From: an uncultured Methanosarcinales archaeon
Lineage (GTDB): Archaea; Nanobdellota; Nanobdellia; Woesearchaeales; JAGVZT01
Assembly (NCBI GenBank): GCA_964419615.1
Contig: CAYQPU010000016.1
Span: forward strand, 1 to 35,175
Reading direction: 5' to 3'
DNA length: 35,175 bases
The stretch's first letter is position 1, and every line of letters begins with the position of its first letter. Both the position numbers and the translations under genes were made by a program. Shown piece by piece: positions 18,115-24,909 of this stretch. The notes beneath the pieces were generated by a model, which worked only from the letters and a program-made list of their open reading frames with translations, did not search any database and was not told the DNA's origin.

Positions 18115-18825
18115 TTAGCCTGCAACGCTAAACACATAATCAATCTTTGGATCATTTAGATACTTGTAAACAAACTCTTCTAGTTCTTTTTTATGACCTG
18201 CTCCAACCACAGCAAGAATTTTTTTGTTTGGTTCTTTCATTACAATCTTAGCAAGTTTTTTTGCCATGTACCTATTTCTATCATCAACTAAAACTTTATA
18301 TATTTTTGGATACCTCTTTTTAAGTTCAAGCATCAGTTTTTCAATAAGTTTTGCATCTGGCACTTTTGTTAAATCAAACTTATTAATACTCTCTGTAAGA
18401 TCATCTCTTCCTAACAGACCCTTAACAATATCTCTGAATATTCTCCATTTTTCTCTCCAGTCCATTGCTTTTGAGAATCTTTTAAGAGTGACTTCAATAT
18501 CTTGATCAATAAGGGCTATCTTAATTTTATTTTTCTGTGCTAATTTTGCTGCAGTAAGCATTTCTTCACCTGGTCTAATCCCAACTCGCCTTCCTAGTTT
18601 CTTTTGAACATAACTTCCAATAATAGAAAACAAAAAACCATTTAAACCAACTCTTGGAAGAGCTGCTAAGCTTATACCTCTCTGTTTTTGAAAAAGAGCA
18701 ACAAACCTTTGTTTGTCAAGCTCAAGAGCAATAATATCTGGTTCTAGCTCATTTACAGCATTTTTAATCTCCTTAATACTTTGAGCTGCAATATGTGATG
18801 TACCTATGATAGTTAAATTATCCAT
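18115..18825 (-). CDS. TraB/PrgY-domain protein
   Basis: IGTSH, ALELD, PGEEM, LIDQDI, DDRNRYMA, VVGAGH. Confidence 0.92.
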   Translation of the reverse strand: MDNLTIIGTSHIAAQSIKEIKNAVNELEPDIIALELDKQRFVALFQKQRGISLAALPRVGLNGFLFSIIGSYVQKKLGRRVGIRPGEEMLTAAKLAQKNKIKIALIDQDIEVTLKRFSKAMDWREKWRIFRDIVKGLLGRDDLTESINKFDLTKVPDAKLIEKLMLELKKRYPKIYKVLVDDRNRYMAKKLAKIVMKEPNKKILAVVGAGHKKELEEFVYKYLNDPKIDYVFSVAG

Positions 18826-18876: not shown

Positions 18877-19800
18877 TTAACTTTCCTTAAAATATTCTAT
18901 TGTCTTTTTTAGACCTTCTTTAAGAGAAATTTCTGGTTCCCAACCAAGATTTTCTTTTGCTAGAGTAATATCTGGTCTTCTTCTTAATGGATCATCTTTT
19001 GGTAAAGGCTCAAACACAAATTCTGATTTTGACCCAATTAAATCTTTTATAGCCTGTGCTAGTTCAAGCACAGTGACTTCAGAAGGGTTCCCCAAATTAA
19101 TTGGTCCCATGTGTTCAGAATTAATAAACATATTAAGTCCTCTAATCAAATCTCCAACATAACAAAAAGACCTAGTCTGCTTTCCATCACCATAAATAGT
19201 AATTGGTTTACCCTGCAAAGCTTGATTGATAAAATTTGAAACAACTCTGCCATCGTTCTTTTGCATATTTGGTCCATATGTGTTAAATATTCTTACAATC
19301 TTAATCTTAGTAGTATGTTGTCTATAGTAAGACATACACAGTGCTTCACCAAATCTTTTGCTTTCATCATAACAACTCCTAACTCCAGTTGGGTTAACAT
19401 TTCCCCAATAACTCTCTTTTTGAGGATGAACTTCAGGATCCCCATAAACTTCAGAAGTGCTGGAAAAGAAAAAAACAGCATTCTTTTCCATTGCAAGCTT
19501 TAACAAATTATTAGTTCCAAGTGAATTTGTGAGCATAGTATGAATAGGTGCTGATTGATAATCAGGTGGACTTGCTCTTGAAGCCAAATGGAAAATCTGA
19601 TCAATCTCCCCTTTAATTTTAAAGGGTTTAATCACATTCTGATTAATAAACTCAAAATTATCATTATCATTTTTTACATTAGCTTTGCTTCCAGAACTAA
19701 AATCATCAGTGCAGATAACATAATTTCCTTTGTCAAGTAAATATTTACACAAATTACTCCCTAGAAAACCAGCTCCACCTGTAACTAAAATCCTTTTCAT
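18877..19800 (-). CDS. uxs: UDP-glucuronate decarboxylase (UDP-xylose synthase), extended SDR
   Basis: GGAGFLG, HLASRASP, STSEVYGDPEVHPQKESYWGNVNP, SCYDESKR, RIFNTYGP, DDPLRRRPDI. Confidence 0.88.
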   Translation of the reverse strand: MKRILVTGGAGFLGSNLCKYLLDKGNYVICTDDFSSGSKANVKNDNDNFEFINQNVIKPFKIKGEIDQIFHLASRASPPDYQSAPIHTMLTNSLGTNNLLKLAMEKNAVFFFSSTSEVYGDPEVHPQKESYWGNVNPTGVRSCYDESKRFGEALCMSYYRQHTTKIKIVRIFNTYGPNMQKNDGRVVSNFINQALQGKPITIYGDGKQTRSFCYVGDLIRGLNMFINSEHMGPINLGNPSEVTVLELAQAIKDLIGSKSEFVFEPLPKDDPLRRRPDITLAKENLGWEPEISLKEGLKKTIEYFKES

Positions 19801-20708
19801 TTAAACCACTCCACTGTCCTTTTTAATCCTTCATCCAACTTAATACTCGGCTCCCAACCTATCATCTCTTTAGCCAGGTTATTACTTAAAAATATCCTCT
19901 CAACTTCTCCTTTTATCTCAGGTCCAAATTCACATTCAATATCTGAGCCAATAATACTTTGAATTTTTTTAAATAATTCAATAATACTGATCTGCTCTCC
20001 TTTTCCAACATTAATTATTAGGTTATTGTTAGTGGAATTTAGGGCAAGCAAATTTGCTTTAGCAATATCCTCAACATAAATAAAATCTCTTGTCTGTTCT
20101 CCTTTTCCATTAATAATACAATTTTTCCCATTTAGCATATTGTTGATAAATATAGATACTACTCCTGCTTCACCACCTTCTTGCCTTGGACCATACACAT
20201 TTGCATATCGCAGTGATGTGTATCTAATCTTACAAGCAGTAAAATAATAATGCAACAAGAGCTCAACAGCGTACTTTGAGGCGCCATATGGACTTAGTGG
20301 TTTAATTGAGTGATTTTCATCACAAGGTAATTGTTCAGGTTCACCATAAATCGCACCGCCTGAACTAGCATAGATAAAGTGTTTAACATTATGCTCTTTA
20401 CAGCACTCTAACAAATTGATACTTCCCAATATATTAATCTTTGAATCTAAAACAGGATCCTTTATTGAATCTCTAACATTAATCTGAGCAGCGTGATGAC
20501 AAACAACATCGGGTTTTTCTTGCTTAAAAATCTCACTTAATCCCTTAGAACAAATATCTCTTAGGTACAACTTTGCTTTTTCATTAACATTTTTCCTTTT
20601 CCCTGTACACAGATTATCAATAACAACTACTTTGTGACCTTCTTTAATGAAAATATCAACTACATGACTACCAATAAAACCAGCTCCTCCTGTAACTAAT
20701 ATTTTCAT
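19797..20708 (-). CDS. NAD-dependent UDP-hexose 4-epimerase (GalE-like)
   Basis: GGAGFIG, HHAAQINV, SSGGAIYG, SPYGASK, LRYANVYGPRQ; 4-nt overlaps with both neighbours. Confidence 0.9.
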   Translation of the reverse strand: MKILVTGGAGFIGSHVVDIFIKEGHKVVVIDNLCTGKRKNVNEKAKLYLRDICSKGLSEIFKQEKPDVVCHHAAQINVRDSIKDPVLDSKINILGSINLLECCKEHNVKHFIYASSGGAIYGEPEQLPCDENHSIKPLSPYGASKYAVELLLHYYFTACKIRYTSLRYANVYGPRQEGGEAGVVSIFINNMLNGKNCIINGKGEQTRDFIYVEDIAKANLLALNSTNNNLIINVGKGEQISIIELFKKIQSIIGSDIECEFGPEIKGEVERIFLSNNLAKEMIGWEPSIKLDEGLKRTVEWFK

Positions 20709-21442
20709 TTTTTGTTAAATTCTTCTCTAGCTTTTTCTAATGCAGAATGATAGCCTATATCAAACCAATTTCCTTTATACACAAAACCACTAAGATCTTC
20801 ATTAACAAGTAGCCATTCCATAAAATATCCCATCTTGTCTGGCTTGTTACCTTGCTCAAGGTACTTTGAAATCATCCCAACTTTATTTTTTGGCAACAAG
20901 TAAATCCCCATTGAAGCCAAAGTTGATTTAGGAGATTCTGGTTTTTCTTCAAATTCAATAATCTTATTATTATCATCTAATGTAACCACTCCAAGCTGTT
21001 TTGCATCTTCTTTGCAGCCAACATCATATAATGCATTTATTATACTTCCATTTTCAATAAAAAAACTATGTACATCTTCTAATTGGAAATCAAAAAGATT
21101 ATCTCCTGCAATAACAATCAAATCATCATCTACCCTAGCTTTGTCAATCACAAATTGAATATCTCCAATTTGACCTAATCTATCCTCATTAGATATTGTA
21201 CCATCATTAAACACCTTTACCGGAACAGAACAAGAAAAATTTTTAACCCAATTCATAAAATTTGCATAGAACTTATTGTTGGTAACTATTAAAATTTCAT
21301 CTACCCCCTCCAGATTCAATGTTTTGTCAATAACATGTTCAATAATTGGTTTTCCTTGCACATCTAATAGATGTTTAGGATTATCTTTTGTTAATGGGTA
21401 TAACCTAGTAGCATAGCCTGCTGCTGGAATTAAAACTTTCAT
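20705..21442 (-). CDS. Sugar-1-phosphate nucleotidyltransferase
   Basis: AAGYATRLYPLT..PKHLL, NDGT.SNEDRLG, IAGDNLF, FEEKP, WFDIG. Confidence 0.92.
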   Translation of the reverse strand: MKVLIPAAGYATRLYPLTKDNPKHLLDVQGKPIIEHVIDKTLNLEGVDEILIVTNNKFYANFMNWVKNFSCSVPVKVFNDGTISNEDRLGQIGDIQFVIDKARVDDDLIVIAGDNLFDFQLEDVHSFFIENGSIINALYDVGCKEDAKQLGVVTLDDNNKIIEFEEKPESPKSTLASMGIYLLPKNKVGMISKYLEQGNKPDKMGYFMEWLLVNEDLSGFVYKGNWFDIGYHSALEKAREEFNKK

Positions 21443-21446
21443 ACTG

Positions 21447-22736
21447 TCACCTCCCTACACTATGGTATTCAAATCCTAGTTTTTTCATCTCTTCAGGTTT
21501 AAAAACATTTCTACCATCAATTAAAATCGGTGAATTCATTAAATTCTTGACTTTGGCCAAATCAGCATTCTTGAAATGATCCCATTCTGTCACAAGAATC
21601 AAAGCTTCGCAATCTTTACTTGTTTCATAAAGATCCTCACAAAACTCTACATTACTCAACATGGCTTGAGCATTCTTCATTCCACCAGGACAATGAGCCT
21701 TAATTTGTGCACCTTCTTTTTGTAATGCACTAATAATATCAATAGATGGAGCTTCTCTCATATCATCTGTATTAGGTTTAAATGATAATCCCCAGATCCC
21801 AATCTTTTTGTCTTTTAAAATCCACATAACATCTTGGATCTTTTTTACAAACATTTCTTTTTTGTGTTTGTTAACTTTCTGAACTTCTTTTAGAAGTTTA
21901 AAATCATAACCTAACTTGTTTGAGATATGGACAAATGCATCTACATCCTTTGGAAAACAACTTCCACCATAACCAATCCCTGCATTTAGAAATCTTGGTC
22001 CTATTCTTGAATCTAATCCCATTCCTTTTGCAACCAAGTTAACATCAGCTCCAGTTTTCTCACAAATCTCAGCGACAGCATTAATAAAACTAATCTTAGT
22101 TGCCAAAAATGAATTTGATGCATGTTTAATAATCTCAGCGCTTTTAATATCTGTAACAACAATTGGTGCCTTTATGGGATCATACAATTTCTTCATTAAT
22201 AATTCAGCTTTCTTGCTCTCAACACCTATTACAATTCTATCTGGATTTAGAAAATCTCCAATTGCAGAACCTTCTCTTAAAAACTCAGGATTTGATACAA
22301 CATCAAACTCCACTCCCTTTTTGCTATACTTTTCAAGAGTTCTTTTAACCCACTCTCCTGTTTCAACAGGAACTGTACTCTTCTCAACAATTACTCTATA
22401 TTCATCAAGGTGTTTTGCTATCTCTCTTGAAACATTCTCTACATAACATAAATCAGCACTTCCATCTTCTCTTGAAGGAGTTCCTACAGCAATAAAAATA
22501 ACTTCAGAGTTATCAACTCCTTCTTTGATATCAGTACTAAAATTTAACCTGCCTTCTTTTGCATTCTTGGCAACTTTTTCTTTTAAGCCAGGTTCATAAA
22601 TAGGAATCTTTCCTTGCTTTAGTGTTTTAATCTTTTCTGCATTATTATCAATGCAAGTCACATTATGACCTATCTCAGCTAAACAAGTACCTGTAACCAA
22701 ACCCACATAACCAGAACCTACAATTGCAACTTTCAT
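21447..22736 (-). CDS. ugd: UDP-glucose 6-dehydrogenase
   Basis: GSGYVG, IAVGTP, EKSTVP, SNPEFLREG, GYGGSCFPKD (catalytic Cys), FKPNTDDMRE, DGRN. Confidence 0.96.
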   Translation of the reverse strand: MKVAIVGSGYVGLVTGTCLAEIGHNVTCIDNNAEKIKTLKQGKIPIYEPGLKEKVAKNAKEGRLNFSTDIKEGVDNSEVIFIAVGTPSREDGSADLCYVENVSREIAKHLDEYRVIVEKSTVPVETGEWVKRTLEKYSKKGVEFDVVSNPEFLREGSAIGDFLNPDRIVIGVESKKAELLMKKLYDPIKAPIVVTDIKSAEIIKHASNSFLATKISFINAVAEICEKTGADVNLVAKGMGLDSRIGPRFLNAGIGYGGSCFPKDVDAFVHISNKLGYDFKLLKEVQKVNKHKKEMFVKKIQDVMWILKDKKIGIWGLSFKPNTDDMREAPSIDIISALQKEGAQIKAHCPGGMKNAQAMLSNVEFCEDLYETSKDCEALILVTEWDHFKNADLAKVKNLMNSPILIDGRNVFKPEEMKKLGFEYHSVGR

Positions 22737-22845
22737 TGTAAATCATCACCTCACTGAACAATACAAATTCTAAATTATATAAATATCTTACCAATATCCT
22801 ACTTTATCCGATAGATATAAATAGTGGCTTAATTTGAATTCTAGT

Positions 22846-23643
22846 ATGAAAAGAAAAATATCCATAACAATAGACAATTCAATCTTAAAAGAAATAGATC
22901 ATACGGTGGATAATGTTTATATTAGAAATAGAAGTCAGGCAGTTGAATCTTTAGTTAGAAAATCATTGGGTGGTCAGAAAACAGCTGTGATATTAGCAGG
23001 AGGTCCAGAGCAAAGACTTGTTCGAAATAAGGATTTTATGATTGGTGTTAAAATTGCAGGAACAACACTTCTTGAACATACAGTCAACAAACTAAGACGA
23101 GCAGGATTTAGGAATTTACTGATAGTAGGAAGAAACAAAATCCTTACAAGAGCATTTGAGATTCTTCGAGATGGAACTTCTTTTGGAGTTAGTGTGACTT
23201 ATATTGAAGAAAAAGTATCTAAAGGAACAGCAACCACTTTAAAACTAGTAAAGGGAAAAATCCATTCCAGTTTCTTAGTTGTTTATGGAGATCTTTATTT
23301 TTCAAAAGTTAATATTGATAGTTTATGGGATTCTCACATAAAATATAAACCAGTATCCACCTTAATGATCACAACATCTGCCAAACCTTCTGAAAAAGGA
23401 ACAGTAACAATGGAAGGTAACAAAATCCTTCATTTTGTACAAAAACCAAAAAAATCAGAAGTTTACTTAGTATTCTCACCAATATTTGTTGCAGAACCAG
23501 AGTTATTAGATTATACTGGAGAAAGTTTAGAAAATACAATCTTTCCAAAACTTGCTGAAAAAGGATTATTAGAAGGTTTTGTAAGCGCAGAAAAAGAAAT
23601 ACATATTCATCAAATGGAAGATACTAAAAAAATAAAAAATTAA
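22846..23643 (+). CDS. Ribbon-helix-helix domain fused to a degenerate nucleotidyltransferase domain (putative regulator)
   Basis: KRKISITIDNSILKEID...RNRSQAVESLV (RHH), then VILAGGPEQRL and VVYGDL; ATG at 22846 with a TATA box about 25 nt upstream. Confidence 0.8.
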   Translation: MKRKISITIDNSILKEIDHTVDNVYIRNRSQAVESLVRKSLGGQKTAVILAGGPEQRLVRNKDFMIGVKIAGTTLLEHTVNKLRRAGFRNLLIVGRNKILTRAFEILRDGTSFGVSVTYIEEKVSKGTATTLKLVKGKIHSSFLVVYGDLYFSKVNIDSLWDSHIKYKPVSTLMITTSAKPSEKGTVTMEGNKILHFVQKPKKSEVYLVFSPIFVAEPELLDYTGESLENTIFPKLAEKGLLEGFVSAEKEIHIHQMEDTKKIKN

Positions 23644-23644
23644 A

Positions 23645-24682
23645 CTAATACTCTTGCCATGGGACTTCCATTGGTTCAGGTAATTCAGCTATTTTTGCAT
23701 TAATTTTATCCATAACTGCATCTGCCCACAAAGATCCATACTTTTGCCATCCAAATAACAGGATATCTGCAGAAAAGGCAGAACTTGGTTTACCAATCCA
23801 GGCTTGATTTGCATGATCAAGTGAATGAACATAACTATCAACAAGATAATTTGCCAGATCATCTTCCCTTACTGAATGAATATTAATGTTTGCAACATCA
23901 GGTAGTAATCTATCTCCCTTTTTGATATTATTTGGACCTTCTCTGTATGTGGCATGAACAACCAGATCATGTTTATGAAGGACTTCATCAAAAATAATAC
24001 CTACAGTTTCATAAGTAGCTTCTCCTTTTTTAGAGTGTAGTTCTTGTCTTTTTTCTACAAAAACTAAGTGCTCTCCAATATTTTTTGAAGGATTGTCAAC
24101 ATCTCCTCCAAAACCCCATTCTGAACCTGGAAATTTGTTGGTATCAGTACTTCTTTCAGAAGCTAAAAGCCATCCATTAAATGTTGTAATCAATAAAACT
24201 GGTGCAATTGGACCATAAGGTACAGGTAATCCTTGCTCTCTAAATATGTCTCTATAATCTTTAAATTTTAAAGCTTCAACTTCAGAATACAAAGTTTGTT
24301 CTAAAGAAAGTACTCCTTCCAAAGGATTTATATCAACAAATCTATATTGGACTCCTGGAGTCATTACTCTCTCAAATTTGGTTTGACCAGGTTTTTTGTA
24401 AAGCAGTGATTTTCTACCGTCTTCTTCCTTTAGTTGGATTTCAAATCCTTCATCAAGTAGTTGCTTAACTTTTTTATCAACACCATAATTCCAAATCTCT
24501 CTTTCCAAATCTTGAGCAGAACCATCTTCTGGATATTTTGTTTGTCCTTTTTCCAGTACTTCACATGTGATATTAAATGGACTCATCTCAAGAGGCATAA
24601 CAATCTTCCAAATAGGAGTTTTGTAATCTTGTACTTTAAGATGGGTTGTTGCAGTTTTAACAATAGTTTGTATATTATCCAT
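23645..24682 (-). CDS. Hypothetical protein with a divergent Nudix-like (NUDT22-like) domain
   Basis: LSLEQTLY...LLITTFNGWLLASERS...FPGSEWGFGGDVD pattern; the Nudix box is not canonical. Confidence 0.55.
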   Translation of the reverse strand: MDNIQTIVKTATTHLKVQDYKTPIWKIVMPLEMSPFNITCEVLEKGQTKYPEDGSAQDLEREIWNYGVDKKVKQLLDEGFEIQLKEEDGRKSLLYKKPGQTKFERVMTPGVQYRFVDINPLEGVLSLEQTLYSEVEALKFKDYRDIFREQGLPVPYGPIAPVLLITTFNGWLLASERSTDTNKFPGSEWGFGGDVDNPSKNIGEHLVFVEKRQELHSKKGEATYETVGIIFDEVLHKHDLVVHATYREGPNNIKKGDRLLPDVANINIHSVREDDLANYLVDSYVHSLDHANQAWIGKPSSAFSADILLFGWQKYGSLWADAVMDKINAKIAELPEPMEVPWQEY

Positions 24683-24759
24683 TTTAAGAAAAAAGTAAAT
24701 TGGGATTTATAAATCTTATTTTTAATTTTCAGTAGTTAAATCTGACCTTAGTAGTAACA

Positions 24760-24767
24760 TTTATAAA
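24760..24767 (+). promoter_or_regulatory. TATA box of 5S rRNA
   Basis: TTTATAAA 22 nt before the predicted 5S 5' end. Confidence 0.6.
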
Positions 24768-24789
24768 TCATCTGATTTTACCCTTTACT

Positions 24790-24909
24790 TGATGAACGGC
24801 CACAGTGGCTTGGTCCTACCCGATCTCATCCCGAACTCGGAAGTAAAACAGGCCAACGTTCAGGACATTACTGTACTTTTGTACGGGAAATCCAGAAAGC
24901 TGTTCATCA
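24790..24909 (+). rRNA. rrf: 5S rRNA (stand-alone)
   Basis: 120 nt; terminal helix TGATGAACGGC/GCTGTTCATCA; conserved CCCGATCTCATCCCGAACTCGGAAGTAAA and GGGAAA segments; T-run immediately after. Confidence 0.93.

Follow-up and report, generated by a model that had tools for sequence, protein, structure and literature searches.

Within the window, that is, the whole 35,175-nt stretch of DNA analysed, a gene for a putative transcription regulator is read divergently from an operon of UDP-sugar genes (Table 1). Its reading frame begins with the ATG at 22846. An equivalent ATG opens all orthologues, which share the N-terminus M-K-x-K-I-S-I-T, and for this reason the upstream TTG at 22834 finds no support as a start. 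The spacer to the divergent gene is therefore 109 nt long (22737..22845), and it carries two TATA boxes; the original prediction had described both the divergent arrangement over this distance and the pair of TATA boxes correctly.

The operon is headed by ugd, whose product scores 587 bits against TuaD and 387 bits against AglM in NCBIfam. Behind uxs there is a gene for a TraB/PrgY/GumN-family protein (18115-18825, minus strand), here and in the closest relative (L026); in a second close relative (L027) the gene of this family lies about 2.4 kb beyond uxs. On the other side, a minus-strand open reading frame of 345 aa (23645-24682) converges on the regulator gene. It has no match in Pfam or NCBIfam, and was rejected as a member of the system on finding it absent from all 20 orthologous loci compared, including that of a relative 86% identical. 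It is a lineage-specific insertion outside the conserved system.

Table 1. Features of the locus, with positions in the window
Feature	Position	Strand	Basis or remark
UDP-glucuronate decarboxylase (UDP-xylose synthase, uxs)	18877..19800	-	Human UXS1 structures 4gll and 2b69, E about 4e-110, full length
GalE-like NDP-sugar 4-epimerase	19797..20708	-	Profile matches
Canonical sugar-1-phosphate nucleotidyltransferase	20705..21442	-	Intact G-x-A-T-R-L-x-P-L-T-x-x-x-P-K loop
UDP-glucose 6-dehydrogenase (ugd), first gene of the divergent operon	21447..22736	-	Pfam three-domain match, N-terminal domain E 1e-72
Shine-Dalgarno-like GGTGATGA in the ugd leader	22743..22750	-	Comparison of promoter geometry across loci
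TATA box 1 (TATA1), TATATAAATA	22776..22785	-	Assigned to the ugd operon promoter through gap and Shine-Dalgarno classes
Candidate operator, three direct repeats	22784..22812	+	Conserved across loci; spacing 11 and 10 bp
Box 1, TATCTTAC	22784-22791	+	Intergenic alignment
Box 2, TATCCTAC	22795-22802	+	Intergenic alignment
Box 3, TATCCGAT	22805-22812	+	Intergenic alignment
TATA box 2 (TATA2), ATATAAATA	22815..22823	+	22 nt before the regulator ATG
Putative regulator gene	22846..23643	+	Open reading frame, 265 codons (265 aa)
Ribbon-helix-helix (RHH) DNA-binding domain, aa 1-45	22846-22980	+	Profile matches, AlphaFold2 model, family alignments
Degenerate sugar-1-phosphate nucleotidyltransferase domain (proposed sensor), aa 46-265		+	Pfam, Foldseek, family alignments
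Catalytic loop of the regulator, GGPEQRLVRNKDF		+	Translation; as quoted in the original prediction
Signature segment of the regulator, GGPEQRLVRNKDFMIGVK			Translation; compare G-x-G-T-R-(L/M)-x-P-x-T-x-x-x-P-K

The product of the regulator gene consists of two domains. The larger, C-terminal one is matched over aa 47-229 by NTP_transferase PF00483 (Pfam, E 4e-19) and has the Rossmann-like nucleotidyltransferase fold of that family; its best Foldseek matches are GDP-mannose, dTDP-glucose and UDP-glucose pyrophosphorylases (7x8j, 3hl3 and 8x7s, TM 0.71-0.76). The N-terminus gives a weak, marginal match to Pfam RHH_1 alone (E 0.12). NCBIfam models of the NikR RHH match aa 4-44 at E 5e-4, and a family profile of 68 sequences matches residues 3-45 to the solved NikR chains 1q5v (E 5.8e-6) and 2bj1 (E 1.3e-5). 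The AlphaFold2 model, built on the same 68-sequence family alignment with a mean pLDDT of 89.8, has an extended N-terminal segment and helices at 11-20 and 29-40, followed by the alpha/beta nucleotidyltransferase fold. With these helices and the NikR matches, the head answers to a beta-alpha-alpha RHH unit of about 45 aa. RHH domains bind DNA as dimers, and the residues with which they read it are those at alternating strand positions together with the N-R-S motif that starts helix 2. An alignment of 20 orthologues shows no variation at K4, S6 and T8 of the beta-strand or at R27-N28-R29-S30, where helix 2 begins, which satisfies both the alternating polar base-reading residues of strand 1 and the phosphate-contact motif at the N-terminus of helix 2. 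Profiles, structural model and Foldseek thus confirm the fusion of an N-terminal RHH to a sugar-phosphate nucleotidyltransferase fold, as first predicted. The protein belongs to no curated family, all NCBIfam matches being far under their cut-offs (best 75 bits, cut-off 292), and no description of an RHH-nucleotidyltransferase fusion was found in the literature; the family-library and literature searches agree with the earlier statement that such a protein was not known to be characterised in archaea.

Homologues are numerous. Among the matches listed, the closest database proteins without exception carry the label Woesearchaeota or Nanoarchaeota. Clusters (90% identity) that match the regulator at E 0.001 or better number more than 600, and the best 120 of them nearly all show full-length coverage that includes the RHH. 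Among all cluster representatives 627 have E < 1e-10, and nearly every one of the best 150 is a full-length fusion. A fusion homologue at E < 1e-20 was present in 82 of 200 other genomes of the same phylum, and with the source genome itself (1.48 Mb, 99% complete) counted, about 30 genomes carry an orthologue of the regulator. A scan of species-representative genomes yielded 75 distinct loci with an orthologue, in MAGs from groundwater, marine and brine sources. For many MAG records with this Woesearchaeales-type locus (L047, L049, L056, L057 and others) the title given is 'uncultured Methanosarcinales archaeon', and for one it is 'Micrarchaeota'; these submissions probably bear the wrong label.

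Gene order around the regulator

For the comparison of gene order, 15 kb around each of 20 orthologues from many GTDB families was taken, and the proteins of the present stretch were located therein. The regulator gene is divergent from a homologue of UDP-glucose 6-dehydrogenase in 20 of 20 loci. Eighteen have the two genes directly adjacent, with a gap of 55-280 nt, and the remaining two (L029, L037) have an insert of 1-1.2 kb on the dehydrogenase side. Despite this insert before the dehydrogenase gene, the candidate operator of both loci remains beside the regulator gene.

In 12 of the 20 loci an intact nucleotidyltransferase and an SDR, clearly a UDP-glucuronate decarboxylase, come after the dehydrogenase gene. 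In a genome from another order (G092) the regulator gene is divergent from uxs itself. Only the closest relatives (L026, L027) have the GalE-like epimerase within the operon. Based on the conserved operon genes, the regulated pathway would therefore lead from Glc-1-P through UDP-Glc and UDP-GlcA to UDP-Xyl. The pathway does not need the regulator, since 29 of the 53 genomes with UXS, out of 201 sampled, are without an orthologue of it.

Three-box element and promoter geometry

The aligned intergenic regions of the orthologous loci have a single block in common, in the order TATA1, boxes 1 to 3, TATA2. The starts of the boxes are 11 and 10 bp apart, which places the boxes on one face of the helix. 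The element is present in 21 of 21 aligned loci. In 67 of 75 species-level loci the PWM places it upstream of the regulator gene and in one and the same orientation; two of the eight loci without a match have no upstream DNA on the contig, and in three of the 75 the PWM found no operator within 1.5 kb. Mean pairwise identity over 69 loci is 0.91 for boxes 1 and 2, 0.60 for box 3 and 0.29-0.32 for the flanks. Many lineages have a plain direct repeat as box 3 (TATACTAC or TATCCTAC) and lack TATA2. The two checks that the original prediction had proposed, of neighbourhood conservation and of motifs in orthologous intergenic regions, thus both came out strongly positive, the one with a divergent dehydrogenase homologue at every locus of the synteny sample and the other with this near-invariant element.

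The element is also unique within its genome. The PWM finds a single site at 49.6 bits in the 1.48 Mb, with the next best at 9.3 bits. The only other genomic site with two boxes at one mismatch or fewer (C59:639) is within a long open reading frame and was judged a chance occurrence. Across 201 genomes a 17-base pattern, allowing one mismatch, occurs directly upstream of the orthologue in 27 genomes and elsewhere at about 10 places, compared with 9 for the reversed-pattern control, i.e. at chance level. Element and gene have thus been inherited together, one copy per genome. An Rfam search of 22000-24800 with E up to 1 gave no match, so that the element does not correspond to any known RNA motif.

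Loci divide into two classes by the distance from the dehydrogenase ATG to TATA1, 20-25 nt without a Shine-Dalgarno motif (seven loci) and 30-47 nt with a GGTG or GAGG motif (ten loci). The shorter gap without Shine-Dalgarno implies leaderless dehydrogenase transcripts; the present locus, with a 40-nt gap between TATA1 and the ugd ATG, belongs to the Shine-Dalgarno class. This dichotomy fits TATA1 as the minus-strand promoter of the operon, with box 1 occupying its BRE position. Box 3 is at the BRE position of TATA2. The closeness of TATA2 to the regulator ATG suggests a leaderless transcript, and the regulator mRNA is probably of this kind. In most loci with TATA2, box 1 begins 62 nt before the regulator ATG.

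Two relatives (L031, L032) have intergenic regions of only 57 and 55 nt, with a single TATA box and a Shine-Dalgarno motif on neither side. From the TATA box it is 20-22 nt to the dehydrogenase ATG on one side and, on the other, 26-27 nt to the regulator ATG, which directly follows box 3; this looks like one shared, bidirectional TATA box serving two leaderless genes. Single-TATA loci of this type, with leaderless genes 20-26 nt to either side, offer a compact model for bidirectional archaeal promoters. Three loci from one genome family (L034:7796-7940(-), L035:6856-7000(+) and L036:7796-7940(-)) have an insert of roughly 110 nt between TATA2 and the regulator ATG. The inserts differ in sequence and are similar in architecture, each forming a strong fold of several hairpins (z -3.5, -6.4 and -5.9, respectively). 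None matched an Rfam family, and the insert could represent either a structured leader or the insertion of a miniature element.

The placement of the boxes bears on the direction of control. Were the protein an activator, it would stand upstream of both TATA boxes and recruit TFB/TBP to promoters with a weak BRE, in the manner of the Ptr2-type archaeal activators. The boxes are indeed upstream of TATA as seen from both the ugd and the TATA2 promoters, and the corresponding repeats of paralogous subfamilies lie just 5' of a consensus BRE/TATA; however, box 1 abuts TATA1 without a gap, occupying the BRE itself, and in the single-TATA relatives (L031, L032, L041, L053, L059) the boxes are between TATA and the regulator ATG, a repressing position. 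Activation can be kept as a possibility, though an unlikely one.

Repression is the reading favoured here. The RHH domain would recognise the three helically phased TATC(C/T)TAC-type repeats, presumably as dimers, in the space that separates two back-to-back promoters, of which TATA1 would drive ugd, the nucleotidyltransferase gene, galE where present and uxs, and TATA2 the regulator gene itself. Protein bound there would cover the BRE of both promoters or, in the single-TATA relatives, the stretch from TATA to the regulator's own start. Because in every arrangement it would thus clash with TFB or RNA polymerase at either promoter, the regulator most likely represses both transcription units. 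That it represses rather than activates is inferred, and we consider it reasonably probable.

Catalytic site and family history

Catalytic positions were mapped via a profile alignment to GDP-mannose pyrophosphorylase, and the residues at each were counted over 40 orthologues. The signature loop of active enzymes is lost from the regulator, G-G-x-G-T-R-L having become G-G-x-E-x-(K/R/H/S)-L in the orthologues. Position 55, Gly in active enzymes, is Glu in 38 of 40. The catalytic-Arg position is occupied by K (15), R (8), H (4) or S (3), and that of the P-K lysine by R (21), M (9), S (5) or C (3). The present regulator has Glu55 for Gly, Gln56 for Thr and Met65 for the P-K lysine, and R57 at the catalytic-Arg position. 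The degraded signature of the original prediction holds good for the loop as quoted and for the missing P-K lysine, with the correction that the catalytic-Arg position keeps its arginine; the YGD site was rightly said to be kept, as VVYGD is seen in the translation. Outside the loop, E-K-P has become Q-K-P and the Asp of W-x-D-x-G has become His253, each in 40 of 40, and of the two metal-binding aspartates only the first is retained (D149, 38 of 40).

Variability is highest at residues 54-75, the protein being otherwise very conserved, and the loop is degenerate in all 116 close RHH-bearing homologues examined. E121, E122, G127, K184, G185 and K200 are present in 40 of 40 orthologues, the remainder of the base-binding G-T-A motif is nearly invariant, and a further 40-odd positions are invariant in the alignment of 20 orthologues. 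A degenerate loop beside invariant pocket residues is what one would expect where a pocket has been preserved to bind and no longer to catalyse. The best explanation is that the domain has ceased to catalyse and keeps a conserved pocket, the loss of catalysis being inferred.

A bifunctional enzyme-regulator in the manner of BirA, PutA or NadR, in which the domain would still make an NDP-sugar and the RHH would couple catalysis or substrate load to transcription, has in its favour that some RHH-nucleotidyltransferase fusions (five proteins, six loci) keep a fully intact signature loop and that the present regulator retains R57, D149 and K200. Yet within the orthologous group the loop is the most variable segment, and a conserved Glu stands where the glycine would be; conservation is lacking at the P-K lysine, and the second metal Asp is His throughout; and the regulated operon encodes an intact nucleotidyltransferase of its own. 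Such a double role is thus quite improbable for this protein, even if weak catalysis cannot be excluded from the sequence alone, given the three retained residues. The preferred reading is of a domain that binds without catalysing.

The fully intact G-x-G-T-R-L-x-P-x-T-x-x-x-P-K loop is found in five of 85 representative clusters that have an RHH and a readable loop (P0154, P0156, P0161, P0168, P0256) and in six of 20 paralogous fusion loci (L127, L129, L133, L135, L137, L140). These fusions are candidates for true enzyme-regulators within the same lineage. In a quick tree they lie near a canonical unfused enzyme. The clade of the present regulator has an SH-aLRT support of 97, and the deeper, all-degenerate group that encloses it only 86, with an outgroup that is not monophyletic. 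The tree is too weakly resolved to prove the order of events, which is only consistent with fusion first and a later loss of catalysis, possibly more than once. The coexistence of intact-loop and degenerate-loop fusions in one lineage would make the family a natural example of the passage from enzyme to ligand sensor.

A second RHH-nucleotidyltransferase fusion is encoded on another contig of the same genome (G000:C7:4168-4953; L002:1501-2331; L121:3001-3786). This paralogue of 276 aa is 31% identical to the regulator, and its loop, GGKSKPL...TPH, is likewise degenerate. Its gene is followed by those for an intact nucleotidyltransferase and a phosphomannomutase/phosphoglucomutase, and is preceded by phased direct repeats, TCATAC-TTCA-TCATAC, just 5' of BRE/TATA. 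Repeats of the TCATAC type are likewise found at L123, L124, L136, L137 and L140.

Among the paralogous fusions, the strand triad R-T-T pairs with (A)TCATAC repeats, that of the own-genome paralogue included, and R-S-S with GTAATAC-type repeats. This covariation, from 20 paralogous loci inspected by eye, is anecdotal; it points toward direct recognition of the repeats by the RHH. For the regulator itself, the match between invariant DNA-reading residues and near-invariant boxes likewise makes direct recognition likely.

Proposed regulation and known systems compared

Taken together, the data make it probable that the gene encodes a one-component local transcription regulator of the UDP-xylose operon with an enzyme-derived sensor, although no binding, ligand or expression data are available. 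Domain architecture, loop degeneration, conserved synteny and a conserved, unique operator are observed directly; actual binding of the regulator to DNA is inferred only. The role of local regulator for the adjacent operon, as originally put forward, gains strong support from the synteny (20 of 20) and from the conserved, genome-unique element (67 of 75). Most likely the regulator is a hitherto undescribed transcriptional switch of the UDP-xylose synthesis pathway.

The C-terminal domain would probably sense a metabolite of the pathway and so tune DNA binding to the nucleotide-sugar pool. The residues lost from the loop are those that hold the beta and gamma phosphates of an NTP, and an acidic residue has become fixed there. 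Still in place are the G-T-A motif that binds the base, the lysine that contacts phosphate (K200) and the first aspartate. An NDP-sugar or a sugar phosphate suits this combination better than an NTP does, and the content of the operon makes UDP-Xyl, UDP-GlcA and UDP-Glc the obvious candidates. A UDP-sugar such as one of these three is accordingly the likeliest ligand by inference, an assignment toward which we lean by a small measure.

Parts of boxes 1 and 3 coincide with BREs, and promoter function could explain some of their conservation; that of box 2 cannot be explained in this way. That the whole element is merely a pair of strong core promoters (BRE plus TATA), with the RHH acting elsewhere, e.g. 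antitoxin-like or in protein-protein interaction, can hardly be upheld: boxes 1 and 3 do sit at the expected BRE places, but box 2 touches no TATA and yet equals box 1 in invariance, the BRE-plus-TATA string GTAAGATATTTATA is found once in the genome, the element travels with the regulator gene and is at chance level elsewhere, the repeats of paralogous subfamilies change along with the beta-strand residues of the RHH, and there is no toxin partner or toxin fold. A toxin-antitoxin pair of RHH antitoxin and nucleotidyltransferase toxin was rejected, the fused domain having the sugar-nucleotide fold of PF00483 and not one of Pol-beta type, with no partner gene conserved.

With their tiny genomes, a scarcity of recognisable regulators and the lack of a genetic system, DPANN archaea are organisms of which almost nothing is known as to the control of gene expression. 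Here a triplet of regulator, operator and target has been defined purely by comparative genomics, and its 29-bp, genome-unique site is directly testable in vitro. The triplet points to control of the supply of UDP-glucuronate and UDP-xylose for the cell envelope, which matters for host-attached organisms. As a tentative proposal, in which we place slightly less than even confidence, this may be the first described family of nucleotide-sugar-responsive transcription factors in archaea, and one apparently special to Woesearchaeales/DPANN. Having lost catalysis after the fusion, it would read the pool of UDP-xylose or UDP-glucuronate and feed back on a shared TATA promoter, single and bidirectional in some lineages; paralogues would have co-evolved strands and repeats for other sugar-activation operons.

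Of the known systems, NikR, the nickel-responsive RHH repressor (1q5v, 2bj1), provides the best sequence match for the head of the regulator. The two heads are N-terminal RHH domains of about 45 aa that agree in their beta-strand pattern and open helix 2 with the N-R-S-x-A-I motif; in both proteins the RHH is fused to a C-terminal ligand-sensing domain to give a one-component regulator that acts at promoters. The sensor of NikR, however, is an ACT-like nickel-binding tetramerisation domain, whereas the C-terminal 220 aa of the regulator are PF00483. The NikR operator consists of two inverted half-sites about 16 bp apart; that of the regulator has three direct repeats in a phase of about 10.5 bp. 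In the latter respect the regulator resembles proteins of the MetJ, omega and ParG type, which use short direct-repeat arrays phased by one helical turn, presumably with one RHH dimer per repeat. These proteins are without an enzyme-fold sensor, and MetJ uses S-adenosylmethionine bound to the RHH itself.

The regulator agrees with the active PF00483 enzymes (RmlA, GalU/AglF, the N-domain of archaeal GlmU) in the fold and length of their catalytic domain, in the G-T-A motif that binds the base, in the aspartate of Y-G-D and in the lysine of E-K-P; it departs from them by having other residues in place of the G-x-G-T-R loop, of the P-K lysine, of Glu in E-K-P and of Asp in W-x-D-x-G. GMPPA (7d72) has the same nucleotidyltransferase fold by profile and Foldseek. 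It is a non-catalytic paralogue of GDP-mannose pyrophosphorylase that binds the NDP-sugar product of its pathway, GDP-mannose, and restrains GMPPB, a feedback on the pathway (PMC11228364). GMPPA is the closest functional precedent for an inactive, NDP-sugar-sensing nucleotidyltransferase paralogue, the analogy being functional only. GMPPA acts by protein-protein inhibition of GMPPB, whereas the regulator would act on transcription; GMPPA carries a C-terminal left-handed beta-helix that docks on its catalytic paralogue, which the regulator, ending at aa 265, does not have, bearing instead a DNA-binding head. Failing the defining features of NikR, of GMPPA and of active nucleotidyltransferases, and combining a NikR-like design with a GMPPA-like origin of the sensor, the regulator is classed as a one-component regulator of the RHH type whose sensor domain is new and derived from an enzyme.
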